Shown piece by piece: positions 35,335 through 64,000 of a stretch of DNA of 64,000 nt; the stretch's first letter is position 1; the number at the start of each line of letters is the position of its first letter. The notes beneath the pieces are model-generated. The model was not told where the DNA came from. It saw only the letters and a list, made by a program, of their open reading frames with translations, and did no database searches. Made by a program: the position numbers and the translations under genes. The DNA lies in contig CM060733.1 of the NCBI GenBank assembly GCA_030704615.1, positions 27,218,001 to 27,282,000 of the forward strand, written 5' to 3'. The stretch is from Takakia lepidozioides (taxonomy: Eukaryota > Plantae > Bryophyta).

Positions 35335-37070
35335 GGAAGCTGGTGGAATTGTACCAACTTCACTCTGAACAATACCCTGGGGACTTGTATGCAAAATGTG
35401 GGTGCATCGAGGATGCACAAGGAATGTTGACACTATGGCTAAACAAGATACGGTGTCGTGGAATGCAAGGCTTGAAGAATCTGCTTGCCGATTTGTTGTA
35501 CCAAATGTCATTTTGCACACTACCCTGGCAGATTTGGACAAGGGCAATGAGGCCATGGCGACATCTACAGAGCTGGATTGTACCAACTGTTACTCTGAAC
35601 AATACCCTGGCGGAATGTATGCAAAATGCGGGTGCATCGTGGATGCAAAGGGAGGTTTGACACTATGGCTGAACGATATATGGTATCGTGGATGTGATGC
35701 TTAAAGATTTTGTTGTAGTTGTACCAAATGTTCACTCTACACACTGCCCTGGCAGACCTGGAAATGGGCAACGAGGTCCATGGAGACATCTTCAGAGCTG
35801 GAATTGTACCAACTGTCATGCTGAATAATACCCTGATGAACATGTATGCAAAATGTGGATGCATCGAGGATGCAAAGGGAAGTTTGACTCTATGGCTGAA
35901 CGTGATTTGGTGTCGTGGAATGCGATGCTGCAGGTGTTGCATTGTAGTTGTACCAAATGTCACTCTACACCCTGCCCTGGCAGATTGGAAAAGGCAAACA
36001 GGTCCATGGAGCATCTTCAGAGCTGAAATTGTACCAACTGTCACTCTGCACAAACCCTGGTGGACATGTATGCAAAAGTGGTGCATTGAGGATGCAAGGG
36101 AGTGTTTGACACTATGGCTGAACGTGATCTGGGTCGTGGAATGCGGTGCCTGCAGGGTTGCTGTGCTGTACCAAATGTCACTGCTACACACTGCCCTGGC
36201 CGATCTGGAAAGGGCAAAGAGGCCCACGGCGACATCTTCAGAGCTGAACCCAATGTCACTCTGAACAATACCCTGGGGGACATGTATACAAAATGTGGGT
36301 GCATCGAGGATGCTAAGGGAGTGTTTGACACTATGGCTGAACGTGATTTGGTGTCGTGGAATGCGATGCCTGCAGGTGGTGCTGTGGTTGTTCCAAATGC
36401 CACTCTACACACTGCCCTGGCAGATCTGGGAAAGGGCAAAGTGGTCCATGGCGACATCTTCAAAGCTGGACTCAGTATGTGTACACTCTTCCAGCCCTAG
36501 GAAAGGACAATGTGTCCATGCGACATAATCAAAGCTGGAATCTCACCTGATATCAGTCTGAAGACTGCCTTGCTAATATGTATGCCATGCTCACCAGCTC
36601 CCTTGGAGGCTCAACCTCTTGTCATGATTCTCATTATGCTTATGGCCCTCTAAGCAAAGATCTTCTTGCTGATTTATCCCTGCCTCTGCACCAGAAGCGG
36701 CAGGCCAAGTTGAATGGCCATGTCAAAGCTGGAATTGTTGTGGAGACCTATGATCAAATGATGGGGGAAGGGTTGCCAGCCCAACCACATCACGTGTGTG
36801 TGCATTTGCCATGCTTGTGCAAGCTGGCAGCCTGGAGAAGCGCAAAGATGTGCATGTTGACATCATCAAGCTGTGGAGTGGTACCAAATGTTGTCTCCAG
36901 CCTCTAACTTGCACATAAGTTGCCAGGTATGTACACGTTCCCTGAATTATCAGGCATGGAGCTTCATGTTGTTATCATCAAAGCTGGCATTATGCAAAAT
37001 GTCAATCTGAAGACTGCCCTCTCTACCATGTATGCCAAATGCGGGAGCTTGAATGATGCCACGCTTAAAT
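35335..37070 (+). pseudogene. Degenerate PPR-derived tandem array (~5 copies of ~230 bp) plus further PPR remnants
   Basis: The unit ATGTATGCAAAATGTGGGTGCATCGAGGATGC...GACACTATGGCTGAACG is repeated with many indels. Confidence 0.85.
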
Positions 37071-39499
37071 GAGCTAGGTTCTTTTGGAGTACAATGAATG
37101 ATTGGATTATGCTGAAATGGATGCGGTACAGTGGCTTTCTTGAACTCACGTCATTGGAGGCCCTTGATAGAATTTCTTACAAATTATGAGCTCAATCACA
37201 GGAAGTTGATGGGGCAGCTACTTGATCGTGGTGTTATATTGAGAGATGGCAAGAACTCAGTTCTACTGTCTCCCATCCTGTTCCATGTATGTCCCTCCCC
37301 AGGTTCTCTTGCTTATGGCCTCTTGCTATGCATAACTGCTGCCTATACAATGCAACCTCCCCTCCTCTGTTTCTGCCCCAGAGACCTATGCCCTAAATGC
37401 TGGCAATGAGGCCCTTTTAAATGCACATAGGCAGGATTATGAACAGCCAGCCACATTACGCAGCCATACAAGCCTTACTGGGATATGACTCGACCAGTCT
37501 TGTACGAGCACATTCTTGCTGAGGTAGGCTCCTGGCGAAATGAACCTGGACAGGTCATGGTTGCATGCCATGCTAGTGCAAAAGACTGTGATATGAGCGG
37601 GGTTTGTGTCATCAAAATCTGCCTCCACATTCGAGACACCATCTCCAGCATTTGTCAAGACCTACCTAAACCCAAGGTTGCAAAAAGGTGGCCCAACTTA
37701 CTGAAGAAGGTCGGGGCCTGCACTGATCGGCCTTTGTCTATGATGAGAGCAAGGATTCAAGCAATGAAGCAGCAGAATAAAGATCAAATATGCCACAGAT
37801 CCGGACTGGGAGAGGTAGTTAGTTTGGAGAAGTGGGAGGGTAATTGCCCTGATCACGGTGCCGGCCATTTATGCCCCTATGTGCTGGATATATCAGCCAA
37901 CACGTGACTACCTACATATAACTCTCCATCATGCACCAACACCGCAAGTCAGACCATCCAGGGAAGTCACCTTAGACGTCTGTGTGCTGCCAACTTTACC
38001 ACCCACTCCTATTGTCGAATGCCACTGTATGTGCTTGATACTTATAACATGAAATCTCAAACTCCACATTTCTATGTTCCAGGAGCCTATACCTCCAATG
38101 CTGACATTATCCTATCGACATCTGATACGACAACTATTGTTGTTTATGCGTTGGTGCAGCTGACCACTTCTACAAATATCCGCCAACAATCACCAATATG
38201 CCTACAACTCTCCAGCTTGCACCAACACCACAAGACATGTCATCCAGGGAAGTGACCTTACATGCTCCAGTTGCTCCCTACACTGCCCCTAACTATAGAT
38301 GTCAACTGTTGTTGTTCGTACTTATAACTGGTCCCATGAAATCTCACACTGCACATCTCTATGTCCCACGAACCTACACCCTCAATGCTGCCATCATCTT
38401 GTCAACTATTGGCTCCCTTTCCCTTCGCCTGAGAGAAAGCTACAACACTGCCATCTACCCTAATTTCTGGTGCATTGTAGGATGTCTGTACTGCAGCCGC
38501 ATGTGGATCACAACCCCGCCAAAATCAATTTCTGTTGCAAGCTGCTAGCCCCCTTCGACTTTGCCGATTGGAGTCCATGCCTACCACCTTGCTCGTGTAC
38601 TTCCCCGACTCGCTGCGCTCCCTCACATGCGCCAACCTACTGCGAAGCCCCGCGGCTCAATTTCGCTGCACCGACCACCTATCAGATCATAGGCTTGTTA
38701 GATATTGAGCTGCTGTTATCACTAGCTTATGTTGTAATTCCTGAGCACCCCCTCTGCTCACATTTATTCTTTTCAATATGCCCAACAAAGTCTTGGCCTC
38801 TCATCATATCACAACGCTATACCCTTACTGGCTTCACTCACAAATCTCCATCTCTCATCCTCCACAACTTCAGACTCATCTTGTATTATATTTTCTTCCA
38901 AATAAGCACCCCAACAAGCTTCTCATCTCATCAAAAAACGCCCCTCAGGTGTCATATATCTGCCTATCTACACCCTCACATTTTCAGCCCCCTACCTCAT
39001 CAATTCTTGTGATATCAAATCAATCACACGGTCTCTCATCACCCCCTCTAGCATCCTATTCCTGACAGCCATTTCTCCTCAACCTTCCCACCCTCTCAGC
39101 TGCCAAGCATCTACCACAATCCAGATTTACCATCACCCAACCCTGCACCACTCCACACTGTACCTCTATCCCACTATCTATATCAAGGCCCGCCGAACTC
39201 ATTCATCCATGGATGTTGGCCACTTATCCTCTTTCCCCCACTCTAGTTTATTATATACTCTCTACCCACCATACACCCATATTAAATTTTTATCCCCATC
39301 ATGAGAGCTCATGTACAACAAACCTCCTTCATGACCCCAGACGAAACCACACAACTAACCCACCGCAATACCTTCCCCCACACACACACAAGCAACTAGC
39401 TCCAGTAGTACCACTATGCTAACACCAACTCTACCCCCCTCATACACTTTCTCACACAACTACCCCAAGCACCACCCACTCACCCCCTCAAAATCCAAC

Positions 39500-42400
39500 T
39501 TATAACCACTGCCCACATGGATGATATCACCAGAGACCCCTTGCATCCAAACATCATCTCAACACCCACCATCCCACTTTAAGTCCTATCTACTTGCCTA
39601 TGAAACGCTTACACTACTTTGCTGCGGCAACATCCCACCAAACCCAGGCCCCTATACCATCACTAGCATCATCAACAAGCTTCCAAAGGATCATAAGACA
39701 GATATGAATTATACTTCCAAACAGACACTATCACGCTCGTGCCTGCATATCAACACCTTAGTGACCACTTCTCTCCCTTTTTCCCTAACCCTCCTACCAA
39801 TAACCGTAAACCCACGCACCCAATTGCCACATTTGGGCTCCCTACTTGCGAACACCCATCCCTAGTCACTGCCACCCATAAACTTAGCACATACCGCTCA
39901 CAACACCTACTACTCTCACTAATCGTTGTCATCTCTCCATCCCCTCAATATGCAATGACTACTTTAGAACCCAACAGACATACACATACGTTTGCTACTA
40001 CACCCAACTGCATGAGCTACCCACACTACTCATAGATACCTAGCACCCCCACACTACCTACCAATCTCCACGAATCCCTTGACCTACTACAAGCCAAAGC
40101 CGGAGTAGTTCACAAGATGCTTGGCGAACACCTAGCGCACCCAACTGCTACCATACACGAGCTAGATACTCTCACCAACAAATTCCCATTCCTTTCCAAA
40201 AATATTCTCACTGCAACCCCGCCGCACCCTTCTCTTTATCAGACATCAAAAAACTTGATAAAAGTATTATCCAGCTAACAAAACGTGTATGTGGTCTACC
40301 AACTAGCACCCCCAACGCCCTCACACAACTACCTACGGACCACTACGGCATTGGTTCGAGCCCATTAATCATCTCATATGCTCGCACATTAGGCACCCAA
40401 TTAAAAGAAGTACTCAACGATCCTAGGTGTCTAGGTATCATTTATCAGGGTCTTCTCAAATACCTTGCATCTAAATACAATGGCCTATACTCACTATCAT
40501 CCTTGCACCCACAAGCATGCCTACACTCCCCCACTACACGCACACTACTCATCCTACGCCACATGAAAATTAGCATACAAACTGATCTGCCTAACTATCC
40601 TAACACCTCATCATCCTTAGAACGCGCATGGCTTACAAGCCCTTCTCTACCACAATTTGACATTTCTTATCCCAAACAAAAGGTCCCCATCCTCACATAT
40701 TTCAAAGAACGACACATCACCACCCTCACCCAACTTACTACTGCCATTGGCCATAGACTTTTAAAACTTAGCGAATTCACTCTTAAATTCTCTCGAGCCA
40801 CGACCAAAACCAATCGCTACCTATATCAACTTCGTACCCTCTTCTGCCATCCCTCGACCGCCTGCACTCTACAATGTGACCTCCCATGCCTCTACTATCC
40901 GCATACGGCTCAAGACTTGCTCCCCCAGTAGCGTTCTACCCCTACTACCTCCATCTACAAAACACTCAAAAATGCATATGCCACCAATACCCATACAGAC
41001 ATAGAATCTGATTTCCCCTCTCAAGTAACTAACACACAACACCCTGAACCTATCCGCCACTTGCATACGCATCCAATCCCTCACCTACAAGGCAAGATTC
41101 CCACACCCCCCTAACCACCGCACCATCCCCCCCATCCTCACCACAATACGACGACAATAACAATGCTTACATCATTAAAGCTATACTAGGAGTTAAAACC
41201 CAAACGTCCATTGATGCCTTTGGAGCCACCTGCATTGATACATACTATCATTGTCAAAGGGTTGGGTACTCTTCCGCAGACAACACATGGCAGATAGAAG
41301 ACGACCTCTTCGGCCTACATGACGATGCGACCCCGAACACAATCTTGCCCCTCCTCACCACCTTCCATAAATAAACCAAACACCAACTATCTAACACACA
41401 TGCACCAACAACACACCACTCCCGCCCAACCTACAGATAAGAAGATAATCAACCACCTTATGCCCCCAACGTGCACATCTGCATATTGAATGTAATCCTG
41501 ACAAAGATGTCAAGCATGATCAACCTCTAATCCACATGGGCCCCCGCCTTTCCAACATTTACACTCAACACGGCTGCTTCATTGGCCTCATCCCCAATAC
41601 AAGACTGACGTGGCTCTGGGAGAAATACTCTACTACTACCTCATCCCACAATCGCTACAACCCCCGAAACAAGACTTTGCTACCAAATTATATTGGCTGG
41701 TTGATCGCTACCTCAAAGACACTCCCCCCAAGAAACCGCGGTCCCTTACTAAATTGGAAACAACCTGTGCGCACCATACTATACCCCAAAGATATTCTCT
41801 CCTTACTTATCAACACATTCCAGCTTACTCACTCATATTACTCCAACCCACTGACATGCCCTATGGCATTGCCCACATTCTCTAGCCCGCACCACAGAGA
41901 CTGTATCTTTGGAGCCACTGGTACTGCCACCCAACACACCTGGGAAGGCCGGGGCCTTGCCCACCCTCCACCTGGTTTTCCTTCTCACGAAGCTCTTCAA
42001 TGGGCAAATTTGTTGCGCACTCCTCTCCTATTGCATCCACAATTCTCATCCTCACACAACAAAACACTCCTAATATCTCTCACCCTCTTCTACAACTCCC
42101 AGAAGGGGTCAATCTACTCGCCACAATTGACCCAAACCAGCTTAAGTATATTCACACCCCTCCTCTTCCCAAATATCTCAAACGGAAGGAACCCACCATA
42201 ACCCTGATTTAACACATCCAAAACCCTCGGCATACAGCCATACCGCCATCTTTCTTTTCTCAGCTCGAACAATTGCTCACCATCACTCATAAAATAAAGG
42301 CCACCATCCATTATCCAACCATCATCTCCCACACCCCTACACCCACCACATTGTCCTGGATCAAAACCAACAAAGCTTGGAACATTGCGACACCACGCCC

Positions 42401-43766
42401 TTCCCAGGTCGCGCCAACAACACCTCTACCCCCAATCCCTGCAATATATCAACAAATCACCATCCCCAAATACCCACTAGCCAATTCACATTACACTGAC
42501 GGATCCCTCACCAAACCTAATGCAGGGTATGGAATCTATCACGCCGGCACCACAGTCAGGTGTTGCCTTAGGCTCCCTGGCCCACATCCTCCGGCGAACC
42601 ATGGATTGATGACGCGGGCTCATTAGAGCCTCCACCCCCCCCCCCTGACACCCCCCCCCCCCCCACCCCCCCCCCCCCCCCCCCCACACTACACCCCCCC
42701 CCCCACACCGACACCACCCCACACTACATCTCACGACCTTACCTCACTATTCCATTCGCCACACCCTCTCCACCCCTCTGTCCATCATCATCACCCCAAC
42801 CGCAACCTCATTACCGCTATTGTCCAGAGGGCCATCTCCCTAGGCCACCCAGTCCATATACTCAAAGTCCGTTCACATACTGGCATCCATGGTAATGAAG
42901 AAGTAGACCTACTCGCCCAACTCGGCGCCTCCCAACCCATAATTGAACCCTTGATTGACCCTATTCACATCGCCCACACCCATCCCTTCTGGTTCATACA
43001 CCCCGTTCCGGACCCCCCTGTACCCAGACCAGTCCGAAACCTCCTGACCACTCTGACCAGAGAAGCAAATAAACAAGCGGCAACCTCCATCAGCCATACC
43101 AAAGTACACATCCAAAAATGGACTCAATCCAATGTTCTGCACCATAAACTCTCCAATCATTTCTGGCTAACCAAAGCCACCACCGACGCTCAAATCCGAC
43201 AAATACTCAAATTCCGATATGCCCAATACATGGGCCACCAGCGCAAACAAATCTTCTGGCCACATCTGTTCCCATCCCCATACTGCTCGTTATGTGCAAC
43301 CACCTACCAAACTCGTGACACTTGGCCACATCTCCTCAGCCAATGTACACACCCAGTTATACATGGCTTGCATATCACGCGTCATAACCAGGCAGTCTGG
43401 CACCTCCATAAGCTCTTTCTAAAATGTGCTGAAACCCGTTGGTTCTCGCTCATGAATGCAGGCACCTACCAGGGACGGCCACCCGACCACACAGTACCAC
43501 CATGGCTACTACCATGCATATGTACCCGATCACCATGCTCGTGCCCTGCTCGACTTTGCCCGGACATACTCCTCGTCCAAGGTCTACCTATCAACACTTT
43601 ACCCCCCACCTCACCATCCCCACAACTCACCATCCATTTCATTGAATTCACATTTTCCATGATCGTTATCCAAACGATTCAATCTTAGGAAAACGTCAAA
43701 AATATGCCCCGCTTATTCTTGCACTCCGTAGGCGTGGCTGGAAAACCGGCCCGTTAACCGTCATAG
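39500..43766 (+). mobile_element. RandI/Dualen-like non-LTR retrotransposon, internally deleted: 2A-like motif, post-RT region, chromodomain, adenine-MTase-like domain, RNase H, CCHC and RLE
   Basis: PFSLSDIKKLDK...CGLPTSTPN...LP...YGIG (post-RT). RNase H YTDGS...KVRSHTGIHGNEEVD. CSLC...HLLSQC, RHNQAV, PDIL...IEFT...KRQKYAPL (restriction-like endonuclease). The RT core is absent. The 5' boundary is approximate. Confidence 0.75.
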
Positions 43767-46728: not shown

Positions 46729-49230
46729 CTAGTCATCTTCATCTAGATTAATTACTTCGTTGTCGTTATCTCCAGATGTTGATGAAGATGCTCCGGGTGT
46801 AGAGGACGTGCCTCCACCAGTACGGAGAGCTCGAGCCTGGGCTTGAGTGGTCAAAGAGGGACCCAATGTTGTGTGGTCCACCCTTGCCATCATGCGTAGC
46901 GTTCTAGGCGAGTGCTGACTCTCTTCCACATTTGCCAGAGTCGGGTTTGTCGCTCTTGCTACGACTTCGTGCAATTTTTCAATTAAATCCGATATGTTTG
47001 GAAGTGACAAGAACACCCCTGGAATAGAGGCAACTTGGTCACGCCATGTGTTCTGCCAATACTTTACAATACTCGTGATGGCAGCCTTGAAATTGTCCAA
47101 CACCTCCTCCTGCTGGGGGTCTCTGCGCAACTCTGGAGGAAATGGCCCTTCATCCCGACGAGGCACCCAGTACCTCTCATTCATATCATCCTAACGGATG
47201 CTAGCGGCCTCCAATTCCCTCAGAAATAGGTCTCTCCCAATCGGTTCACGATTGTATGGGTCGTTTTCCGTTGGCACCCACGGATCTTCAAGCAGTCGGA
47301 AGAATCTTTGTCTGATACAGCTCCAATGCCCTCCCAAGTTCCGGCAAAAAAGCTCCGTTTGGACTGGGTCCTGTATGCTTCTAGCACACACGGTTATTTC
47401 CCAGTTGGATGTCACCCAAAAGGTCACCGGATCTTTAACCCTGGATAACGTCATAGCATCCAAGGCGTGCATCTTTCTTGGACCATGTCATTGTCTCCCC
47501 CCAGTGCTGACAATTTAAAAAATCGTAAGGCGATACATCCAATGGCATGTTGTACCAGTTGTACTCGTATTCCGTGGGCATATTGTCTTGCAGCCCAAAC
47601 AACTCGTAGAAACATCGATGGATTGGTCCACGGCAGTCAGGGCATTGGCTGGCTCGCATGGCTGCCGATATGAGACATGTGGGGTGGAACAAATGGCCAC
47701 ATGAACCAAGCATATAGCCTCCCTCCGATCCGTAAGGGTTTAGGCACATTGTGCACACCGTACCATTTGTTACCCATGACGCTGGATTGATATCCTCGGC
47801 CTGCTGTCCTACTCCTCTACCTCCAAATCCCAGTTTATGCTCTTATTGGTATCGGAAATTGTATGCACACAGTGCTCAAGCATGACATCCACATCATCCC
47901 ATATGGTGAATCCAGTGTACTTCGACGTGAATACATCACGCACAGTGTCGTGTCTTTGCAAATTAGCAGAGATGCTATCTACGCTTCGATTCGACAAACG
48001 TGCTGCACGTTGGAGGGAGGACAACGCTTCTTCTATCCGTGTTTCCCGCGATGCTAGATGGCCCGTCCATGTCACCCAATTCCGCCAATTCCCCTTCAAC
48101 CATAGCCACGATCAGATTTGCATGACATTTGAGTATCGATATGCAACAGCCCTAGCTTGCTCACGTTCCCCCACAAGCTGCTCTAATTCCTGTTCCTGGG
48201 CCGATGTAATTTGCACGGCTGAACATTCTTCAGTTTCCACTATGGGGTCCTTCCATTTTCTTGCCCTCTCCGTCGCAAGTCTTTCTTCGTCAACCCTCGT
48301 CAGGTCCAATTCGCACTTCATTCCCATGCCCGATTGAGTCAACCCCGTCGATGACGCGGTCAATGTCCATTGGTGGCATATCCAAACACGCCAATATGTC
48401 TTGCTCGTTGGTGATTGGCCTCGGGTCCTGAAGCACACCGCGTACGCTGTCGAGAGTCCCCAACCCCATTCTTTCCAGCAACTTCGCTATTTGTCACCGT
48501 TGCAAATGAACAATGTCATGTAGGTCATTGATGTGCTGTTCATGTGCGGCCAACCGTTCCTCCAACGAAAAGCGTACCTCGCCCCCCTCCACCTCAGACG
48601 TTGAAGGCCCGGCTACGGAGACCTGTTGCGGCGTATAATCTGGAGGTTGGTCCCCCTGCACCTCCCACACCACCACTGCGTCTGCCTTTCCTCATTCTTC
48701 CACCTCGTCATTTCCATCCAACCGTATGATGTCCTGCCCCTGACGTATATACAAGTCTGGGATATCAGAGAACATGTATAGTCTAGTACGCTGTCTCGCA
48801 GTGGTAGTTTGCCAATCCACTGGTCGCAATAAAATCAACTCTGTGTACAACATGGCCGCAAATAAATACGGGACCTTGTTGTTGACGAGCGGTTGATCCC
48901 ACAATGTTGTATGTACCTCCTCTGCCTTGTGGCGGAAATGCGGGTTGGCGCAGGAAGACAAGTTAGCTTGATTTTGTTTGGTTTGTGGATCATGCCTATC
49001 TCTGGGCCACAAACAATTTATGTGATACCAGTCCACAAATTTCCTGCAGTCACCAAGCGACCACCGTTGCCCCAACCTCCAAACTTCCCAACCTGGTTCC
49101 GCAAGAATGTTGGGATCATTGTATATGTCCCAACGAAGTTTGCGTCTCGCCCTTTTCGGTTTTTTTTTGGGAGGTCCAGGTTCATTATCGTCATCCGTGG
49201 GATGACCTCCTTTGTCTCATCCTCCGCCAT
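46729..49230 (-). pseudogene. Fragmented ORF of ~800 codons with a RING-H2 zinc finger, probably TE-associated
   Basis: Consecutive minus-strand ORF pieces. CTMC-x12-C-x-H-x2-H-x2-C-x10-CPDC in ORF 47435-47758. No introns evident. Confidence 0.65.
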
Positions 49231-50299
49231 TTATGGCTCTGGCTTACCCCTACTCGACAGGTGTTTGCTAAGAAAAATGCTCTCCCAACCCTCCTAAATT
49301 GTACCTAATCCTACTCCCTAATGAATCCTCCCCAAGTACTAGAGGCACGTGTCACTCCCTCCGCAGTTCTAAGTGATATGACGCAATGTGCAATGAAAAA
49401 AATGTGGGTGCCAGAGGAGGGCTTCCGAGAGGTACTCAACATCGATTTCGTAGAAACCAGCGGCCCAAAATACCCCCCACCCAACCAATAACACCCCTCT
49501 CCACTCGGACTCAATGACAAGTATCGTGCGCATACGTTTCGCTACACAACTACACCGCTGTCCAAACCACACCACACATATATGCACAATAAAGTAGTCT
49601 GCCACAATAGATATGAAAACTAAACTCACACTGTTGACACAGAAACACGAAATACAACACAATCATTCGTTAAAATAAGAGTCGAGCCAGGGGCACCCCA
49701 AGCTATGGGGACTTCACCCCACAACATCCTACTCTCCCTCCATAAGTACACTCAGATGCTAAGCAACGAGGGAGCTCGGTCGTGCAGGCTCAACTCGAGA
49801 GAGATGAGCCGCACGACTGATGAGCTCGTGAAGATAAGATGGTTCAGGTGTCAAACTAAACTTGACACCTGACTTAACACTTGAACTAATTCCAAGTGTT
49901 AAATATAAATAATTAGATTTATTCTAGTTAGTTTCACACTGTGTATTTAACTTGACAGTTGTCGTGCGCATACGTATCACTACACAACTATATCGCTATC
50001 CAAACCACACCACACATATATGCACAATAAAGTAGTCTGCCACAATCGCCCCCTAGCTGGTGGTTAGATCCCTCTAACTCCAAATAGCTACAAGATGTAA
50101 TAGCCACAGCCGTACTAGTCCTCTATCACTGTCCCTATTGTACTCAAACTCTATAGACCAAGAGGCCGGGTACAAGAGTAGCCCCATCGTTAGTTGCCGT
50201 CTTGCAATCTGTGAACTTGAGCCAGGATCTCGTGTGTTGGTCTCCTAGTACCTTGGCCTTGCATTTCATGTTAGCCTTCCATGGTTGTATCCACTCCCA

Positions 50300-51700
50300 C
50301 TATCCAATGCAATGCGGACATAATCAATCCCCATCAGGAACCATCTCAAGAGGTGGAGTCAAGCATCCCATATGCCAACCTCTAGAGCATCGATCACACA
50401 CCAGCATGGTGGCTGCCCTTCTAGCAGACCCACACAACATGCACCTCAAACTTGCAGGTACCACTGCCAGGTTTGGGTCAATCATGCCATCGACATTCGG
50501 AAGGTGACATGGCACGCAATTACGCACATGGTCCTTCCAAGTCATGCCATCCCGACCCTCCAAGATCAGGACGCCTGAGGGCAATACCTCTCGAACCCTC
50601 AAAATAACACGTCCTACAGTCACATCCAGGGTCGTTGGAGTAGTCTGCTGCAGATAAACATAGTCACCAGGGTGAAATCTCCGAACCCCAGGACGATAGC
50701 CCCCACCACGTATGGTAGCATACCTCAACGTATCACGATGTTGTGCAATGACAAGGTTCTCGAAAGCCATGGGCATGACTTTCTTGAACAACTCCGCGTG
50801 TTGACCACATACATGTGCCCACACGTCCGGATCGTCAAGATTGAAGACTACTGCAACCTCCCTACGAATAGATGCAGGCAAATCTGGCTCTCGGCCAAAG
50901 AGAAGGAAATAAGGCAAGAACGATGCAAGTGATGCTTGCTTGTTGAACCTGTAGTCCATGGCTAATCAGGGTAGCTGAAGGTCCCAATCTCCAAGGTGTC
51001 CCTTCTGCAAGCCATACTTGCGCAAACCCCACTTGCGCAAACCCCTTTTAACCGTTTGCACAACCCTCTCTGCCAAGCAATCGGCCTCAAGATGATCCCG
51101 AGAAGTGGTATGGTGGTCTATCAAGGCCTTGTCACACAACGCCTGAAACTCCCCCAAGAACTCTCTCCCTTGATCCGTGAGTACCTCAGCTGGAGCACCG
51201 AATCGGCTAAGTACACGATCCAAGAATGCATACGGAGCTCCCTCACTGGCCTTATCAAGCAATGGAACCAACTCTATCCACTTGGAGAAGTGCTCCACCA
51301 TCACCAACATGTACTTGTTGTGGCGCATGGTCAGTGGCAACGGCCCCTGCGAAGTCAAGACTCCACCTGTAGCCCAATCCCATGATCGGAAGAGGGTGCA
51401 ATTGTGGTGTAGGGGCGTTGAATGAAGCACGTACCCTGTCACACACCATGCACCTAGCCACAAATTGTTGCACCTCTGTGTGCATACCACGCCACCAATA
51501 CTACCCCTGTAGTAGACTATGAGTGCATCGCACCCCAAAATGCCCCAACTCCTCATGGGCATGCCGCACTAACCGTGCCCGCTGTGTTGGGTGAGGCACA
51601 ATCCTCACTCGACCATCCTCCCACACTTGGAGCAGGTGTATCCCCTCCCACGTGAACCTCTTGGCTCGTTGTAGGATCCAATCCCTCTCCTTGGCAGTCA
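50300..51700 (-). pseudogene. Gypsy integrase (HHCC plus DDE) with a C-terminal PHD finger (50309-50443)
   Basis: HAHEELGHFG...CMVC, WSLDFAG, LTDQG, LAER. PHD reads CMLC...LVCDRC...WHMGC..PPL..VP.GD(W>stop)LCPHC. Confidence 0.9.
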
Positions 51701-51999
51701 TAGTGGTTGTCGTGTCTTTGGAGATAGTCCAACACAACTGAATCCTCATGTATATCTTTGGCACCACCTTGCTCATTGCTGGCCTTAAGGTCCTCAGACA
51801 CTCGGTCTACAGTCGTCCCTATTGTAGGTCCAACCTGGCCTTCCGCTGCCAAGATACACAGAAATGCAGATGTATGCCATCCGGGCACCATCTCCTCGTC
51901 TGTCTCACCATGCCACCGAGCTCCAGTGTCATCCTGTTGGCTCGTGCATGGATTGCGACTCAACCCATCCGCGTGGTATCTATGCAATGGCCTCTACCT

Positions 52000-52700: not shown

Positions 52701-53194
52701 CCTTCAGTGCTCCCAAGTCCTTCAAACTGAAGGCAAAGCAGTTCCTGTAAGCCCTCAAGAACCGCCGTATACGTCGTCTCTCTCCTCCGGTGACTATGGG
52801 TCCAACATCAGGCTCCCAGTTGTCCTCCGTGACTGCAACCTTGAGTCCAGTAGGCTTAGAGGTAGAAGACGCGTCGCGTGGTTGCTATGCTGCAACCTCT
52901 TGAGCAGTAACCACTGCCTACTCTGTCAGTGACAATGCCTCATCCTGCCCCATCATCTCATCCTTGAGGACCTCCTCAACCCGAGAAAAATCCCCAACCT
53001 CATCCATCACCGCCGCCTTGGCTACCAAATCCCTCTGAACCTCGAGCACCTCCCACGTGTGCCATGGATGCGGCCTGCACCTCGTGGTCCGCATCTGTTC
53101 ACCCCCACTCGCTGCCTGTACCGTCTCGATAGGCAGAGAGATTATCAAGGGAAGTGTACTCCGTACTCTACGCTGCTCAGCCATAGCCAAGCTG

Positions 53195-54140
53195 ATAGTC
53201 CAGGTCAAGCAATTGAGATCCATTGCTTGCCCGAACACCTGACGACGTGATGCCTCAGAAAAAGATGGCACCGCCATGGTACCAGTGGTAAAATCCATCG
53301 CCTGCTCGCGTTCGTTAGCATTGGGCTCCACTAACTGCTGCAACTAGCTATTCCATAAGAGGCCAGGTCCACTATCCCGGAAAGCATGAGATCTTGGAAA
53401 GCTGAGCAGTGTAGGCAATGCTGCTTGTGGGTGACCCACTTTATTGGCCACTGCCAAAGGTGATCGGTCATCGTGTCTTACACGCTGAGACTGCCTCCCT
53501 ATGTCCAAAATTTTATCCACCGTCAGGTTTGGTGGCCGTTGCACCCCATCAAATGCACGCTTGAGCAGTGCAGGTGGCATCAAGTTGGTCCACCATAGTC
53601 GTGGGCGATGAGCCCGTGACCCCATTGCAGCTGCATCTAGCAACACTGCTGACCCAAGCCAAGACCGCACTTGATGTACACTGGCCATCACCTTGGCCCG
53701 AGAATCACCTATCAATGGCACATTCTCCAAGACATATGCCAGAGAGTCTGTCTGCTGAAGCTGTAAATAGCGTAAGACCCTCAATATCTCCCAAAACAGG
53801 CGTGACCTTGAGTCTTGTAACCCATTGCCATACCCGGCTGATGAATGCCCTTGGTAGGGCCAACCTGCCACTACCAAGTGAATATGGCCAACCCGCTCCA
53901 AATCATGCGCCCCCATCAAAGAGATGTCTGCTGGCAAGGCTTGTTAATATCCACGAACTGCAGACACTGGCAACAAATCAGGGTACTGCTACACCAACTG
54001 AGCAACATAGCGCAATGAGACGTGTCATGCAGTCTCATCCCTCTCCACATACATGTAACGTCGAACTCGTACACCTGCCTGCAGCACTGCAGCCAATCCA
54101 GTGCTGATCCCGCAAAACAAGTCCAGAAGACATATGCCTT
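53195..54140 (-). pseudogene. DNMT3-like DNA cytosine-5 methyltransferase domain inside the gypsy polyprotein
   Basis: Motif I LLDLFCGISTG; II YVERD; III LPADI; IV VAGWP(C>Y)QG; V LQDSRSRLFWE; VI YVLENV; VIII AHRPRLWWTN; IX EREQAMDF; X RRQVFGQAMD. Same reading frame as gag and protease, with in-frame stops. Confidence 0.88.
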
Positions 54141-54499: not shown

Positions 54500-54897
54500 A
54501 CAGGGAGCTGTACACGACGACCATCTCCTAACTGCCATCCAGGCCTGTAGGATGTTGACTCCTCCCAAAAATCCAGGGTGAAGCCCATGGGATACAACAC
54601 TGCCCCACCAACGAGGACATCGTAAGAGACCGCGTCTGTCACAATGGCTTTGGCTCGCATCACTGAGCTATCTATAGGATGATCTAGCTGTAGTCTAATG
54701 GCCAACTCACGCCGTGTCATGCCCCGAGCCTGCTCTGATCCTCCCAGAGATGTCTGTATCTGGAAAAGACAAGGCTCCATATCCGCCTCCATGAGGCCTA
54801 AACCTACAATAGCAGCTCTGCCCAACATCAGTGGTTGAGCTCCCGAGTCCAACAAGACCCGCAGTGGCCGGTACCTCTTGCCTGCCGGTCCACTCAA
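54500..54897 (-). pseudogene. Retrotransposon aspartic protease
   Basis: RVLLDSGAQ...YDVLVG. Confidence 0.85.
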
Positions 54898-55799
54898 AGA
54901 GAAAATGTCATCCTGGTTGTCTTACAAGACAACTCCAGGTGTCACCATGGCGCGCTCAAAGGCTAGCCTAGCTGGCAGCTTCGTCAACCTGGCAGCTGCA
55001 GCTTTCCATGGCGCAGCCGTGGCAGTCGTGACCCTCAAATCCAAGGATCCCTCTGCCACTACACCTTCCACTAGCTCCGCAGAAGATGAAGTGACATCCC
55101 CACTCTCACAGAGTGTTGCTGCTAGTCTGAACACTGCAGCTGGTCTTATCCCCGGCGTCGCAATCATGGTTGCCGAGAACAGTGGGGCCTGACACACAGA
55201 GGTGGCCGCCCCCAACAACACACTGGCTGCACTAGCCTTGGCAGCAGGTGTCAGTGCTGCACGTTGAGCTCTCCCGAATGGCACAATAACTGCCTCTTCT
55301 TTGGTATACGTCGGGCGAGAACTAGGTGCCATGGATGTCGTCAACCCTGTCTCCGCCAAGATTAATGATTGAGGCAACCTAGCCAAATGGCGTGCCTTTC
55401 CACGTTGTGAATTCAACTCCACCTCTGCACCTCGTGGCTCAGGAACTCGTGCTGCTCCTCGAGTGACGGCTGCAACAGACTCCACCTGCACTAGTGGTAG
55501 TGCTGCCCCACACATAAATCCCATACCTCCCATGTCTCCTCCGTCAGGATGACGCTGCCGAGGAGGAACAAGAGGTGGACCCTCAGGTCTTGGAGCTGGT
55601 ACCACCTGAGCTGTGGCCATGGCAGCAAGCCTTTGCTCTAGCTGTTGAAGCCGGTTGGCCATGCCTTGGTCAACGCCCTGACCTCCATGTTCTTGGCCAT
55701 ACTGCGCTTGCCCTCGTCCTGCACCTCGTGCCTGACCACCTCGTCCTCTCTGAGGTGCTCCACCTCACCCTCGACCACCATTGTTCCCTTGGAACTGGC

Positions 55800-57110
55800 C
55801 TCGCCTCAACTCAGGGTGCAAGTCATAACATTAGGCATCTCCATGCCCATACTTGCTACAATGCCCACACTGCAACTGTGCAGGCTGTGCTTGTGCCGTC
55901 CCTTTGCCACTCTCTGGGCAATCTTTCTTGACATGGGGTCCTCCACATTTCCAAGATACCACCCCTGGTTGCTGTTGGCCTGCAAAAGATACTACTGGCC
56001 TCTGCACCTGAGGTCCCCTGTAAGCTCCATGGAATTTGGGTTGGGCAACCTTGCCCCCCTGACCACGCTGTTGGGCAGTCCCTTGTGCCTGTTGGCTGGC
56101 AGCTGCGCCTTGTGCAGGCATGTCCTTGCTAAATCCAATGGTAACAACTCGCTCTTCCACCATGTTGAGCTCAATCCACTCAGCCAGCAGAAACACATCT
56201 GCTAATGTGGGTTGGGCCACTTGTAACAGGGTTGCATCCCGCACCCTTCTCCTGAGCTCCTTGTCCAAAATTCCATACCAGAACTGGACTGCCTGAGCTT
56301 CAGTAACCCCTTGGGTCACACTTATCAAGCGCCTCATACGAGTGTAGGCCTCTCGCAAGCTCTCACCGGATTTGCGTTGGAAATCTTGCAAACTTCGCAG
56401 CTTCTCTGTCCGTACGCCTTGGTAGTTCAGCCGCAATTCCTGGAAGAACTCCACCACTGGGTTGAATCTAGGCACATGTGTTGTAGCTGTGGTAGGAGGA
56501 GTAGTAGCACTTTTTGAACTGGTACCACCTGCAGACGTACCGGCACTACTTGTCCCATTACTAGTGCTGGCAGTGGGAGATATTGGTGCTGATGCAGCTA
56601 CTGGTCGCGTCATGCCTCGAGTAATGGAGATGTAGTCAGGTGACCAATACATCCTCCACTCCTCAATCTCTACTTCATGTCCTCGCCTGAACTCGTGGTA
56701 ATCGTCCATAGACGGGCCTTCCAAATGCTGGAACAGTCCCTTCCACGCCATGAATGGGATGAACAGCTGTGGATTGCGCATCTGCTGCAAATCACACCAG
56801 CTTCGAATTCCTAGATAAAGTCATCCAGCTCGATTGTGCCCACAGCTCCAGAGTACCTACGAGGCCCCTTGGTAGCTCCATACATCTCCTCCATGTCGTC
56901 CCACAATAATGGCGAAGAAAACTGCACACCTGTTGATGAAGCCTCCGAGTCTGTGTCAGACTCTATACTAGTTGAGGGTGGAGGTGAAGGTGGTATGAAC
57001 CGAACACCTCGTCTTGTGAACCCACTCTCACTGCTACTGCCTGTAGCCGTACTCCCCTCAAAACCCTTGGGTAACTCCGTGATGATACTCACATCCTGCA
57101 CCTCCCCCAC
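55800..57110 (-). pseudogene. Gypsy gag with zinc knuckles
   Basis: LQDFQRKSGESLREAYTRM (major-homology-like region). Knuckles WKCGGPHVKKDC and CGHCSKYGHGDA*C. Confidence 0.8.
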
Positions 57111-58269
57111 GTGACACTATAAGGCTCTAGTACTAATTATAATAGTGACACGGGTGGGCACCTGTTGCGGTTTAAGGGTCATATCCCAATGGCTCAGGGC
57201 ACCTGCACCTGCATCCACCCAAAAACACATATGGTTGGCTGGTCATCAACCCAGTCTCACCATAGAAGAAGCACTGGTGGTCTTGCTGGTCATCACTCCA
57301 GCCTCACCACCGACAACATACTTGACCGGTGATCAAATCCGGCCTAATCCCTATGAAAGCAAGCGCCCACACAAAACCAACATGGCGCACAGTCAAGCAT
57401 GCAGGTATTGGGGGGGATCCAAACACAAGAAATCAAAACATCAACACCCCCACACCAAAATCCCTCCTCAGCGCTGCTCCTGCAGAATACCCCAGCCCAA
57501 AAACCCGGACTGACTCTTGCCTCCACCTATGGAAAGGTTTTGGCCTACCGAGAGGATGGAAAGCTATGGGGAGGAGAGACTAAAGCAATTCCTAACCCCA
57601 ACATGTCATCATCCCGACACTCTCCATTTCCTCTCTAGCCATACACTAATGTCAAATAGTGACATGTGTGTTACGAACAGAAAGCTTGGTGATCATCCCT
57701 GACTTGAAACAACTTATTCAATGGACCTCAAATATATGTGGGGAGGATCTAATTGGTGGAATTTTTTACTAAAAGTATTAAATATATCATATCTATCATC
57801 TAAAATTAAATATTTGGATAAATCCCTCAATTTGAGGTACCTATATAGACTTTCATGGAGGAAAAATCTGCCTCTTTTGGTCCACCGTACCCTGCAACTA
57901 CCCATGGAGATATCAAGTTGGATACTTGTTAGACAAGCACATATCTATCATGATTGAGAGACAGAGGACAAATAGAACTAGGACATCTATTTGCAGATAA
58001 GAATAGAACTAGGACTTCAAATAGAAATATCAAAAATTGAGGTTTGTGTATTTATGAAGGCTTTTAAGCCATTGAGTTCATTTCTTTTCGAAATGAGTAG
58101 TATTTCTCCAGTATGAAGTGTGAAACCTGTTTTTGTCTTTGTTCCTACATTACTTGTATGACTGTATGTTGAAGCTAGAGTACTCAGTATCTTTTCTCCT
58201 ATGAAAATCTTGAAGCACCACCATGAGCTCTGGTGCAACCACCACCTTTAGGAGAAATTCAGGTCAATA

Positions 58270-58895: not shown

Positions 58896-61535
58896 TGATC
58901 CACAAGACCAACAAAGCTGATACATCTCAGAAATATGTCATGTTGTCCATCAGGCAAACCCTCAAATTCGGAGATCCGATAGATCTAGGCACATATATAT
59001 CTAGACTAACCTTTGTCTCAAGACCATGCGCAGACTTCTACATAATAAGTCACATTGAGATTTCCAATTGAATGAATCATCAGAAGGTTGCTATTCACTC
59101 TATATAATTTCTGTTGAATTAACCCTTGACTTCCTACGGAACCGTTTCGGGTTTCATAGAACATGGTATATTAACGTAATTTTTGCAGATCTTAATATTT
59201 TTAGGTCGTTTCTTCAACAATAAATGACCTGACGACATGGCATATCATCTCCAATTGGCAGCATGCCATTTGGAGAAAGTCTGCCACGTCCACAAATCTC
59301 CAAACCCAATGGGTCACAAATGCTCTTGCATGGAGTGAGGCTACATGGCCAATGCTGATTGGACAACACTTCAGGCCACTTTAAGGGGGGGGGGCGGCAA
59401 TTTTTACAATTTTTGCCATTGGATGTGGGCATAATTTGGACCAAGGTGTGAAGAGAGTCAAGACAAGAACTGTACTGAGCGACAGATGGACACTGAACTC
59501 GTTCTTGTGATAGGCTTCTCCCTGGGGATTTTGAATTTGAGCAATATTTCATAGCATCTTTGTGGAGGCCAAGTCCCAATTTCTAAGTCTTTGTAATGAT
59601 GGTAGTTTGTCGGACCCCCAAAGAAACACTTACAAAGTACCCCTATGCTAAACCTAACTTTTGCCCCTCATTTTTTGCATTGACATGGCATTCCTACCAC
59701 AGATTATGAATGTGTGGAGTAAACACTCCACCAAAAATTTAAAAGCCTCTCAAATTAGTTGGTCAAGGCTAAAAAACAATGTTTTCAAAAATAAAAACAA
59801 ATAATCTATCCTCCCTAAAACCATATAATCTCCTATATTTGACGGTGAAACAAATTCATTTTTGGTGAGTGCATGCACCGGGTGGCCCTACGTGTGTAAA
59901 CGTGTTAAAGTGATAGATCTGCAAGGCGTTGTGTGTCACCTTCTGGCTGACCAGTCCCACCGGCCCTCATGTGTTGACCGAGGGTTGGTAAATTTGAAGT
60001 ACGTGCACACTTGCAGTCGCTTACTCAACAATTCGTCAGTGAAACCCACCCGCAGAACGCCACATGTATACTAGTCTATGTAGCAGCTCGGTAAAATGGA
60101 ATGGCTTTCTTGGCTATGGATCAGAATTTCTGGGTCACAGACGAGTGTTTGGAGTTTGGACAGCAGGGCTGTGTCGGACGAGCTTCGAGTAATATCTCAA
60201 TCATTATTAACGGACATAAGTAAGCAGGCCTTCCTCTTCCATTTTCAAAAAGGCAAATCCAAGGATGTACTGTTTAACAGATTACGAGGCTCATTACTAC
60301 CAGGGGACAATCATGCTGCATTTGTTGCCCACCTCTATTCCTCGTGTGCATGCTTACTTAACACAATCAAGACGAAGCAGTTCTAATTAAAAAAACTAAA
60401 GCAACTAGAGTTTCAGTAGACAGAAGGTTTTGTATAATCTAGCTGCTCCAATTCCTCTCATAGAGTTACAAAGTAAGTTAGTGTAGCTTGGTGAAGCATG
60501 TCCATGACAGAGGGAGGGAGAGGATGACATGCAGAGCAGGACCCGAGTAGTTGGGGTGGGCCAAGAATACCCAAGACAAGTGGCTAATCAGACACGTAGC
60601 CACGTGACCACACATAATTCCAAGCTACAATTAGAAAATCCCTGACGAAAAGCTGCAGTCCTACAAGTGTCCCTTGTAGGCCGGGTTTCTGTTTCCAGCC
60701 CAGTGACGTAGCTACACATGGCATCTGCCTCAGCTGTCGATTGCAAGTCCAACCTTCAGTCTCCCTTATATGCCACATGTCCTCTCCAGAAAATTTGAAA
60801 CAGAAACAAGAGAGCGAGAAATGTAAGAGATATATAAAAAAGAAAAAAGGCTGTGAAGGAAGCAGGCGATGGTGGAGTGCACGTGCAGAGAGCAGGGGTG
60901 CCACGTCGGGAGCGTGCTGCTCTGATTTAGACTGTACGTGTTTCTCGAAGCATTCTTGAATGTTTGCGTGCGGATCTCCGGTGTCGGGAGCTCGGTGGTG
61001 CACAGCATCTTAGCTTCTTAGCTGTACTGTATTGGGTCCCCATGTTTTTTCCTTATCTGGAATGATGAATGCTCCATATTTTGAGGATTGGGTTTCTTCT
61101 TGGTTGCTGCTCTTCCTTGTTTGTAGGCGGGGTTTGTAGTGGGAGGAATTTTCCGCTTGAATGATAGGGTAGGGTTGCGTTGGGAGTCTGCACTGTCTAA
61201 GCCCTGCATTGCCTGGACTTAAGCTTGTTCTTCGAGGTCAATTTCCATGCTTTCTAAGGTGGTGAGCTTTTACTCTGACTGGAGGGGAAAGAAGCTGGTG
61301 GATGCGCTGAGAATGAGTGTCGAATCGGTTCACCTCTGTTTCTGAACTCTCGGTGCAGTTTCTCTGATTTTAAGCCGTTTCTCTCGTCATTGTACCTCAC
61401 ACATTGATTTTAACGCACTATGTTCATCGAGGTAAGGAATTCAGGCATCTGTGTTGGGTTTTTGAACCTTTCACCAATTCTTTCTTTCTCTGTTGCTTTA
61501 TCGAAGCAAGTAATAGTAAGAGAAAACTAGCAATT

Positions 61536-64000
61536 ATGAGTGGAGGTGGGGTGCCCTCGCATGGAGCGAGAGCAGGAGTAGCGGAGAGGTGGATATCATC
61601 GCAGGCGGGACCCAACCCGAGCACTTCCCAAGGAAACTCTCCCAGGGCGATGGATGATTCGTCTCCAATGTCACGGTCCTGGACCAACAAATCCCTACCC
61701 CCTACCTCCTCTGTGCCTGTGCAATCTGCTGTTCTTTCGGCGCCTTCGTCGGCGCACCCTTTTGGACGTGCCATGGCAGAGAGCTCTCTGGGAGCTCCGT
61801 CGACGGATTCTCTGTCAGGGTTCGGTAGCCCCTACTCGCAGTCAGGTGCTCTGTCAAATTCTCTCCCAGCCAAATCTGCATCTTCAGGTTTTGGCTCTGA
61901 AGTGCAGAATTCATTCCTTCCTACACACGGTGGACTGTCCCAGCAAGACTACTCTCAGGCTGCATCTCAGGTCTCTCAACAAAAGCCAACAATGAATTTC
62001 TCAGCCCATTCTCCTTCTAGCTCTTCAGTAGGGCTAGCTTCTACTCAGAATGGTTTGGCCAGGCTCCGCCTCTTCCTGCGTGATCACAAGGACGATCCCA
62101 TGGATTCATCTCAACCAACTTCAGGCGCACCCGAGAATAGCTACCCCTCTTCTGGAAACGAGAAGCTATACGAGGCCTACAATGACCTTCACAGCCTAGC
62201 ACAAGATTTCCACAAACCCTTTGATGCACCTGCAATTCTGGTAGTCGGACATCAAACTGATGGAAAGAGTGCTCTTGTGGAAGCTCTCATGGGCTTCCAG
62301 TTCAACCACGTGGGTGGGGGCACCAAGACGAGAAGGCCCATCACTTTGCACATGAAGTATAATGCTTCCTGTACCGAGCCCCGCTGCTTCCTGGTCACAG
62401 AAGATCGGCCACCCAGGGAGGAGGAGAAGAGTCTTGAAGAGCTCCAGGTAAATTTTACTTCCCAACCAGGAGAATTGCAATATAATGTCCGCCAAAACGG
62501 AGAGATTGAGATGAAGAACATACTGTTCATGGAGAGCCAGTGGTGCCAGCAAAGATTCTACTCTTCAGCCTCTGATGGAAGTGGTTCGGTGAAAGCCATT
62601 CACATGTTCAGTGCACCATGGTGACAGTTACCACCTAGGAACCCCTTACAGTCTCTGTGAAAAAAACCTGACTTGGAGAACACTCACACAAGTACTCAGA
62701 AGGTAGGCATCTCATAATTCCCTTAGTTGCACCATGGGTTGCATTACCGGCAGTTTCCCTGTGAATGAAGGGAGCTTACATACTTTCCTTTTGATCAATG
62801 GAACTCAATACATGGCTGCAGCATGTAGATCCTCAGAGGGGAAGTGGGCGACAGATGCTTTGACTACAAAGCTGCCACGATAGTGTGGCAAAGTTGTTTT
62901 AACAGAGGGCAATCCTTGGTGTTGACTATGTTAAGTTTCCACTACAAAGAAAGATCTTGACGGCCCATGAAGAAATCTCCACAAGCTGTACTGACTAGGA
63001 GAGCTGAAATAAAGATACTTTCCCACATATCTAATTTGTTGTCATTGGTCTACTGCTTGTTGTCATTGGGTAGAAAGAGAGAAAGAAAGAAGGAAGAAGG
63101 TCGGGAGAGCAATTATTGATGGAGGCTCTATCAAGCCAGTAGAAGCCAGCGGATGCAAATTCACCTTTCTTCCGTCACGTATGGACAACCATTAGGCAGA
63201 CATGTGTGTAATTTACACAAAACTTGATTTTTTTCAGACAGATCACCAATGGCATTTCTGGATTACATACTAATATCCCAATATCATACACAAGTGTTTA
63301 AGCCTCTTGATGATTTCTATTGGGTTAGTACTCTATGTGATGGTGCAGTTGAACATTCTCTGCACATGATGTCCAAGCACATATGCTTTGTTCCTGTGCT
63401 ATGTGCAAGACAGCCTGCAGTATGGGTTTCAATTAGAGTGTTATACTTTTCTGTTTTCCTTTCACGACCAGCTTATGAACCACTAATTGGAGACCTTGGA
63501 CTGCATTAATGTGTGTTCCCAATGTCTCAATGCAGGGATATATTGAGGCAGAGAACATGCGGCTTGAGCGGGAAGCGTGCCAGTTCTGGGCAAAGGAGAT
63601 AATATTGAAGATAGAGTATAAGTCTTGCCCCAATCTTACAATTATTGACACTCCAGGTCTCATTGCTGCTGCCCCTGGCCGCAAAAATCTCTCTCTTCAG
63701 GTCTGTTAAACCATCCGGAGATTCACTGTGCTACTTTCTAATGGGTACTTAGGTACTTGGATCCAACATGCTCGCTAAATTGCTTAAGAAAGTGGGACAA
63801 GTGATCGCTTTAGATCTTGCTAAAATACAAGCTGGTAGATTAGTTTGAACTTCTGTTGGTGTTTGTCCCACTTCTAAGCTCTCTTTCTTGATGAAATATC
63901 TTTCTAAGTACACTGCTTGATTGCCAAGCTGTCATCTCCCTCTTTCTTCTTTTTCAGTGTCATATTGTTGGTAACAGGCACAAGGACGAGCGGTGGAGGC
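61536..64000 (+). CDS. ARC5: Dynamin-related plastid-division protein ARC5/DRP5B, 5' part. Exons 61536-62447, 63536-63700, 63978->64000.
   Basis: LYEAYNDLHSLAQ...PAILVVGHQTDGKSALVEALMGFQFNHVGGGTKTRRPITLHM, then YIEAENMRLE...CPNLTIIDTPGL, then QGRAVEA. GT-AG introns are in phase. Confidence 0.95.

Follow-up and report, generated by a model that had tools for sequence, protein, structure and literature searches.

A retrotransposon with a methyltransferase in its Gag-protease frame

The 64,000-nucleotide stretch of Takakia lepidozioides DNA analysed here (the window) contains a Ty3/Gypsy-type retrotransposon of a high-copy family, dead in this copy. Its integrase is tipped with a PHD finger, and its first reading frame carries a DNMT3-clade C5 cytosine methyltransferase domain. 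We give about even odds (roughly 0.5) to the reading that in live copies this enzyme would be produced at the level of Gag, freed by the protease and methylate nascent cDNA in the particle, the PHD-tipped integrase then inserting that cDNA.

The methyltransferase domain lies on the minus strand (54,141-53,161), in frame downstream of Gag and protease. One minus-strand frame runs from 56,820 to 52,603 over 1,406 codons, with 9 internal stops and no frameshift, and contains Gag and a CCHC region, then protease and methyltransferase, and finally the first part of the reverse transcriptase (RT). All five ORF starts that a preliminary description had assigned to a single frame (56790, 55662, 54897, 53937 and 53343) fall within it. 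The true gag start is the ATG at 56,894, cut off by a separate frameshift near 56,802. ORF1 is colinear with Marchantia proteins (e.g. P0003, 54% over 1,250 aa) and gives a weak PF03732 match for Gag. That the enzyme belongs to the polyprotein was borne out by its position in frame after Gag-protease, stable across the family; its placement inside an uninterrupted Gag-Pol was not, since a conserved stop at 52,887 precedes the RT and leaves the enzyme in the Gag-protease ORF. The features of the element are as follows.

56,895-57,650, minus strand: 5' untranslated remnant; upper limit approximate, from the drop in contig depth
52,885-56,894, minus strand: ORF1, Gag-CCHC-protease-methyltransferase; decayed by the frameshift near 56,802 and by 8 premature stops
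54,532-54,945, minus strand: aspartic protease (LLDSG; DSG at 54,849); Pfam Asp_protease matches in relatives P0208, P0352 and P0302
53,161-54,141, minus strand: DNMT3-clade methyltransferase; catalytic Cys changed to Tyr at 53,856-53,854, 4 stops
52,879-52,887, minus strand: conserved UAG stop with CAA CCA after it (UAG-CARYYA), a predicted site of readthrough (motif as given in PMC3542737)
52,031-52,749, minus strand: RT (PF00078, E 3e-32); frameshift near 52,594
51,969-51,971, minus strand: site of a ~560-nt deletion (connection and RNase H gone), from comparison with a contig and relatives
50,894-51,590, minus strand: integrase, H2C2 zinc finger and DDE core (PF17921, E 8e-4; PF00665, E 1.7e-10); frameshift near 51,344
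50,309-50,443, minus strand: PHD finger at the integrase C-terminus (PF00628, E 1.1e-07)
50,047-50,058, minus strand: purine-rich, PPT-like tract immediately before B1; kept in 4/4 relatives shown
49,960-50,046, minus strand: repeat B1, ending GACA, then a 2-nt spacer (49,959-49,958)
49,610-49,957, minus strand: repeat A2, starting TGTCA
49,522-49,608, minus strand: repeat B2, the 3' end of the element; 81/87 identical to B1
49,518-49,521, minus strand: candidate right target-site duplication
24,086-24,435, plus strand: repeat A1, probably the displaced 5' end of the element; 96% identical to A2
24,082-24,085, plus strand: candidate left target-site duplication, the same 4 nt as 49,521-49,518 (4-mer frequency in the window 0.005)

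The Pol order protease-RT-RNase H-integrase matches that of Ty3/Gypsy (Metaviridae), the RNase H being deleted here and present in relatives. Contig 27 of sequencing run X8, possibly an RNA run, has 561 additional letters at 51,969-51,971, where relatives encode RNase H. At the other end, contig depth drops from ~1.5e5 through 2e3 to 277 between 57,427 and 58,300.

The domain belongs to the DNMT3 clade

Motifs I (LDLFCGISTG, 54,126), IV (GWPYQ, 53,865), VI (ENV, 53,727), VIII (AHRPRLWWTN, 53,613) and X (GQAMD, 53,232) follow one another in canonical, unpermuted order. Together with a PF00145 match (E 6.6e-08, better than the curated Pfam cut-off), they confirm the earlier claim of a C5 methyltransferase between protease and RT. 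In the window copy the catalytic Cys of the domain is Tyr, and 4 stops lie inside it. All 29 sequence matches in the PDB were DNMT3A/B/C, and a profile built from 30 relatives gave 94-71 bits to DNMT3, 64-53 to DRM and no more than 41 to M.HhaI. For an intact relative (P0024), an AlphaFold model with pLDDT 90 was compared with known structures by Foldseek; all 32 matches listed were DNMT3A/B/C, with a best E of 5e-19. In the ESM Atlas the domain falls with a streptophyte C5 methylase cluster.

Two other identities were rejected. A DRM enzyme is circularly permuted and this motif order is not, and the profile bits for DRM were lower. A host plant DNMT3 gene would stand alone with a C-terminal DUF3444; the domain here is part of a longer frame and has no introns, and a Pfam scan of the window methyltransferase detected no DUF3444. 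The moss genes PpDNMT3a/b, as described in the text of PMC6453930, share the unpermuted catalytic domain but possess DUF3444 and lie outside any polyprotein. The wording "animal-type DNMT3, not DRM" in the preliminary description thus stands as to DNMT3 over DRM (profile bits, PDB matches, motif order), whereas "animal-type" misleads, because non-flowering plants also possess unpermuted DNMT3 according to the same text (PMC6453930). The host plant DNMT3 family would be the likely donor of the domain.

Decay of the window copy and constraint in the family

The window copy is non-functional: the catalytic Cys is replaced by Tyr, the frame is interrupted by stops and the RNase H is deleted, and there are frameshifts near 56,802, 52,594 and 51,344. 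Other family members were read from contigs of public sequencing runs and from metagenome loci. Lesions were checked on contigs over 53,780-54,140, from runs X1-X3 (one sample, possibly the source of the window itself) and X5 (a second study). At the catalytic codon, 98.8% of X1 contig depth carries a different letter from that of the window, and at the three stops covered 95.9-99.8% differs from the window copy. The four lesions checked are private to this copy.

The family is very abundant, with 63,604 contigs aligning on 9 kb and a summed depth, which is not a copy number, of 2e5-1.2e6 as against 277 in the flank. Depth was of the same order over the methyltransferase (~5e5) and the RT (~1e6). 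Among the 27 variable sites listed, 15 of the 16 with a share below 0.9 fell on the third position of a codon (p 8e-7). Sites with a share of at least 0.9, where the window departs from the rest, numbered 11 and were all first or second positions. Of 14 pairs tried for dN/dS, the six bryophyte-type cross-lineage pairs giving a value ranged from 0.12 to 0.19 for the methyltransferase, with 0.05-0.08 for the RT; cross-lineage dS is near saturation, so these ratios are rough. Close decayed copies gave 0.40-0.74. These ratios, which had been proposed as a check at the outset, point to purifying selection on the methyltransferase domain in the family.

Conservation also extends to the active site. 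In 137 aligned distant relatives the motif IV Cys was retained in at least 125. Very distant lineages have preserved it, together with the Glu of motif VI and the Arg-x-Arg of motif VIII. This retention, and the full DNMT3 fold predicted for P0024, argue against conservation of the domain for a role that is non-catalytic or does not involve DNA methylation, such as binding or protecting cDNA ends or methylating RNA. We consider such a role quite unlikely, while noting what speaks for it: 58 of the 137 have GWECQ at motif IV, without the usual proline; no clear CpG signature was seen; and the Klebsormidium enzyme was inactive in a yeast assay, a result that its authors call inconclusive in the text of PMC5890265. 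The observed/expected CpG ratio was 0.49 in the element, 0.51 in a neighbouring exon and 0.57 in the rest of the window. CpG/CHG depletion was uninformative: in CpG the element is no more strongly depleted than the exon and little more than the rest of the window.

A conserved stop separates the methyltransferase from the RT

In all 30 same-frame loci (29 loci and the window), which represent about four lineages and are mostly near-copies of one family, methyltransferase and RT are separated by an in-frame stop, 75-113 codons past the domain. The stop is UAG in 19 and UAA in 11. It is directly followed by CARYY in 28/30, without the final A in 26; the full UAG-CARYYA occurs in two, the window (at 52,887) and locus L001. 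These two share the exact tobamovirus-type readthrough motif, which also works as CARYYA after UAA according to the text of PMC3542737; here, the predicted readthrough stop would divide Gag-protease-methyltransferase from RT-RNase H-integrase. Of 22 Gag-protease-methyltransferase proteins chosen, 21 end without RT and one (P0197) continues into a long tail without assigned domain. RNA folding behind the stop, run without shuffled controls, gave long hairpins in three relatives and no clear one in the window, and is given no weight here.

Because the conserved stop precedes the RT, and UAG-CAA-CCA is a known readthrough motif, the enzyme is likely made at the Gag level. ORF1 would then be Gag-protease-methyltransferase, Pol would require readthrough, and each particle would likely carry many copies of the methyltransferase. 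The cDNA could also be methylated if Pol arose by reinitiation or splicing instead of readthrough. An ATG two codons past the stop in 26/30 loci and the use of UAA in 11/30 are compatible with that route, but the window, L001 and L038 lack the ATG and have nevertheless kept both stop and frame, the exact CARYYA is present in the window and L001, and UAA is no obstacle to CARYYA function; we regard reinitiation or splicing as improbable. Supply at the Gag level is not needed everywhere. In the algal relatives P0269 and P0275, DNMT, RT and RNase H share one open frame without the stop, and the enzyme of chlorophyte relatives is at the Pol level.

Split direct repeats with integrase-type ends

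The 3' end of the window element reads PPT-like tract, B1, 2 nt, A2, B2, and the complete arrangement of split direct repeats, A1-coding-B1-A2-B2, was found in four relatives (L049, L055, L062 and L072). The element termini are TGTC...(G/A)ACA, i.e. TG...CA, and the 5' end starts TGTCA in 22 of 23 relatives as well as in A1 of the window. Among nine loci having both ends, eight have an exact 4-bp target-site duplication and one a single mismatch; L055, where the start of A1 is not clear, was left outside this count, and the window has a candidate pair. A 4-bp duplication is as expected of a DDE integrase.

The preliminary description had called the element a Ty3/gypsy retrotransposon. Its Ty3/Gypsy domain set, TG...CA ends and 4-bp duplications agree with this, but the repeats are split direct repeats and not ordinary LTRs: two complete flanking LTRs, a Ty3/Gypsy feature, are lacking. 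No TGG-starting tract, as for a tRNA primer-binding site, followed A1 in the five of five cases inspected by eye. Membership in DIRS, Ngaro or PAT was rejected on the rve (DDE) integrase in place of a tyrosine recombinase and on the 4-bp duplications. Troyka elements were set aside as well, with CG...CG termini, 3-bp duplications and animal hosts in the text of PMC12440569, against TG...CA and 4 bp here. The NCGN target preference given for Phygy in the text of PMC6317226 was not seen among the target duplications of the family.

Where A follows B, the junction is CA-NN-TG in 6/8 loci and in the window, with TA in two decayed copies; in L032 and L033 the B/A junction is deleted. Staggered cuts after each CA of such a junction would give 2-nt 5' overhangs, as in processed retroviral ends. 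A route in which the integrase cuts this junction is possible. In six of the nine loci with target duplications (L024, L029, L034, L035, L066 and L077) the element ends in a single B. This A...B form may reflect B1/B2 recombination or assembly collapse.

A1 is missing at the 5' end of the window element itself, and an A copy lies on the other strand at 24,086-24,435. It is probably the displaced 5' end, since the same 4 nt precede A1 as follow B2 (background 0.005) and A1 and A2 differ by only 11 transitions. We infer that a ~33-kb segment, from 24,436 to ~57,650, was probably inverted or mis-oriented; contig joints support this neither way. Substitution rates in plants are near 1e-8 per site per year, and the A1-A2 divergence suggests an insertion a few million years old at most.

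Relatives across bryophytes and green algae

The Gag-protease-methyltransferase layout recurs in Marchantia polymorpha (22 entries), Calypogeia fissa (5) and four Sphagnum species (5), with identity up to 70%, and Riccia sorocarpa has one homologous fragment. PCQ is present in 13 of the 22 Marchantia-named matches, many of which are fragments. A search of representative proteins returned 222 clusters (50% identity) at E<1e-30. The best 150 included 144 new proteins: in 75 the enzyme follows RNase H or precedes the integrase, in 16 it follows Gag/protease or precedes RT, 52 consist of the domain only and one is PHD-methyltransferase. Among 30 proteins whose sources were looked up, the organisms named were Scenedesmus, Closterium (three strains) and Klebsormidium nitens; a further search added Haematococcus and Cymbomonas. 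Marchantia, Calypogeia, Riccia and Sphagnum, and among the algae Closterium and Klebsormidium, all have homologous elements. The nearest relatives and the adjacent P450, PPR and dynamin-like genes point, on sequence alone, to a non-seed land plant, likely a bryophyte, as host of the window element. The metagenome loci number 80; 7 have a chlorophyte-like order and the rest belong to the near family, many being near-copies close to Sphagnum proteins; PCQ in 80/80 is not usable as evidence because the pattern by which they were fetched included motif IV.

These data rule out the one-off capture of a host DNMT3 gene by a dying element, for which only the non-functional state of the window copy could be adduced. 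The domain occupies the same position in named liverwort, moss and algal proteins and in metagenome loci, the clusters are numerous, introns and DUF3444 are lacking, and contig depth is similar over methyltransferase and RT. Family copies without the domain, or with it out of frame or split by introns, had been named as signs of such a capture; in relatives the domain is in frame and intronless.

In the methyltransferase tree (43 of 178 rows, no host plant DNMT3 included), the window groups with Marchantia, Calypogeia and Sphagnum (100/99), and the RNase H-methyltransferase-integrase type forms a separate clade (99/88). Green retroelement DNMTs form one clade (99/97) in this tree without host plant DNMT3, with a long Symbiodinium row inside it, and K. 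nitens is not sister to the bryophyte clade. The RT tree, in which no reference Gypsy RT was included, sets the two architectures apart at a single split of weak support (43/92), the same division as in the methyltransferase tree. Six pattern matches in viral contigs yielded one weak locus (L081, 25% identity), and a viral donor was not seen among them.

In chlorophyte relatives the enzyme sits between RNase H and integrase. The order RT-RNase H-methyltransferase-integrase-PHD was observed in L069, L071, L073-L076 and L079 and in proteins P0136, P0308 and P0311, many with GWECQ at motif IV; in L075 a G-tract precedes a repeated unit, resembling a B-A-B end. Fusion directly before the integrase, with which 75 of the 144 representatives are compatible, raises the alternative of a nuclear role, with the insertion site or host chromatin in general as target and the PHD finger of the integrase bringing the enzyme to particular nucleosomes. 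The PHD finger is linked in both architectures, and the host enzyme PpDNMT3b performs de novo CG/CHH methylation in heterochromatin (text of PMC6453930). In the window family, by contrast, the enzyme is in the Gag-protease ORF, parted from integrase and PHD by the stop and RT-RNase H, and the K. nitens methylome is described as ordinary for a plant (text of PMC5890265). We judge nuclear action unlikely, if worth keeping in mind.

Comparison with known systems

The closest known system is KnitGypsy-Dnmt3, described with DIRS-like repeats as an acquisition of the K. nitens lineage (de Mendoza et al. 2018, PMC5890265). According to its text, the Gypsy domain set, an intronless DNMT3-clade domain, the A-coding-B-A-B arrangement and purifying selection are shared; in the window, A-coding-B-A-B is represented by B-A-B and the probable displaced A1, and the key catalytic residues are kept in the family while the window copy has lost the Cys. 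A relationship to the Klebsormidium retroelement DNMTs is supported by K. nitens protein GAQ93235.1 (P0208), presumably one of the elements of PMC5890265, which has the Gag-CCHC-protease-methyltransferase order of the window and aligns over 573 residues at 29% identity. The two systems differ in that the window family is a high-copy one of a land plant and has relatives in various bryophytes and green algae, and in that the text of PMC5890265 mentions no conserved stop, PHD finger, 4-bp target duplication or CA-NN-TG. A review reply in the same source places the KnitGypsy DNMT in one ORF with RT and RNase H; here the frame is the same but the stop intervenes in 30/30 loci. The window element, homologous to the K. 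nitens protein, would work like KnitGypsy-Dnmt3, save for the single open frame.

SymbioDIRS-Dnmt3 (text of PMC5890265) shares the DNMT3-type domain and A-coding-B-A-B repeats and has a tyrosine recombinase, in contrast to the DDE integrase, protease and PHD finger of the window element. Chlamydomonas Gypsy-7a_cRei (text of PMC9940879) is likewise a Gypsy polyprotein with a PHD finger, a likeness of domains, and the domains listed for it include no methyltransferase. The text of a plant LTR survey (PMC6317226) mentions neither PHD nor a relevant methyltransferase, and that of a 2025 paper (PMC12344493) reports DNMT retroelements in streptophytes and dinoflagellates without naming land plants. 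We found no report of a Gypsy element with a DNMT from any land plant or chlorophyte in the full-text literature, a scope that excludes most subscription papers, theses, Repbase and figures. The present elements would extend DNMT-Gypsy elements from Klebsormidium to land plants and add the stop and the 4-bp duplication and junction features.

Proposed mechanism

The preferred reading, methylation of cDNA in the particle by a Gag-level enzyme, builds on the domain order, conserved stop, catalytic motifs of the family, purifying selection, split repeats, TG...CA ends and 4-bp duplications. In live copies, the first ORF would encode Gag, protease and the DNMT3-type enzyme and end at the conserved stop, so that the methyltransferase would be made and packaged at the Gag level, RT-RNase H-integrase-PHD coming from occasional readthrough of UAG-CARYY(A). 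The element's own protease would release the methyltransferase, and double-stranded cDNA would be methylated within the particle, ahead of integration. The DDE integrase would insert the methylated cDNA, probably steered to chromatin by the PHD finger. A new copy would thus arrive pre-marked, which may protect it against host editing or non-self sensing, or silence it from the outset. Activity has a precedent in the Symbiodinium retroelement DNMT3s (SymbioDIRS), which methylate CG de novo in yeast (text of PMC5890265). Points against this reading are that the Klebsormidium enzyme was inactive in yeast, that CpG depletion is not distinctive, that strict CARYYA occurs in 2/30 loci and that the ATG allows reinitiation.

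More tentatively, and with considerable doubt as to the whole, one may envisage an unnamed Gypsy-like lineage spanning green plants and alive from prasinophytes to liverworts and mosses. Its particles would carry DNMT3 at Gag stoichiometry, and it would replicate without tRNA priming, split repeats rebuilding the ends and the integrase cutting head-to-head CA-NN-TG into ready-processed ends; pre-methylated copies would enter PHD-chosen chromatin, and the many intact enzymes might add to host methylomes, e.g. that of Marchantia.

Why a transposon should carry an enzyme that silences it is a puzzle that has so far depended on algae, in which experimental manipulation is difficult. A land-plant family with PCQ gene models in Marchantia makes the question testable in a genetic model; the text of the Marchantia methylome paper (PMC5784723) counts five DNA methyltransferases, the retroelement ones not among them. 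The conserved stop predicts the amount of enzyme and its place of action. Split repeats with integrase-type ends suggest a replication route between those of LTR and DIRS-like elements, and annotation based on LTRs would likely miss such elements.

Other elements and genes

A non-LTR-type polyprotein with RT, PHD, PCIF1-like PF12237, a DNMT3-type domain and RNase H was observed in ENA proteins P0360, P0362 and P0364 (cluster of P0263). We take PF12237 to be an adenine methyltransferase family. The DNMT3-type domain is 33% identical to that of the window, and the two longer proteins of the three have an added OTU domain; the group would be a second class of retroelement with a DNMT3-type enzyme. 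The window itself holds a decayed non-LTR element at 40,083-43,688 (plus strand; RNase H, E 6e-4), in which 41,785-42,152 weakly matches (E 9e-5) the PCIF1-like region of P0360 and no C5 methyltransferase was seen.

Several unassigned ORFs at 46,729-49,500 (minus strand), with a RING finger at 47,435-47,842, adjoin the 3' end of the DNMT-bearing element and probably belong to another mobile element into which it inserted. Frameshifted PPR repeats (PF01535) at 33,321-37,100 (plus strand) form an apparent PPR pseudogene, and a decayed LINE with endonuclease and RT lies at 15,474-19,540 (minus strand). Short dispersed repeats with a GGTGGTCGCA core occur at 14,430-14,690 and 20,586-23,953, around hAT transposase remnants on opposite strands (DUF659 at 21,381, hAT dimerisation domain at 22,361). 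The remaining genes are as follows.

300-794, plus strand: alliinase-like host gene fragment
6,580-8,972, minus strand: cytochrome P450 host gene
61,374-63,709, plus strand: dynamin-family host gene, presumably ARC5-like
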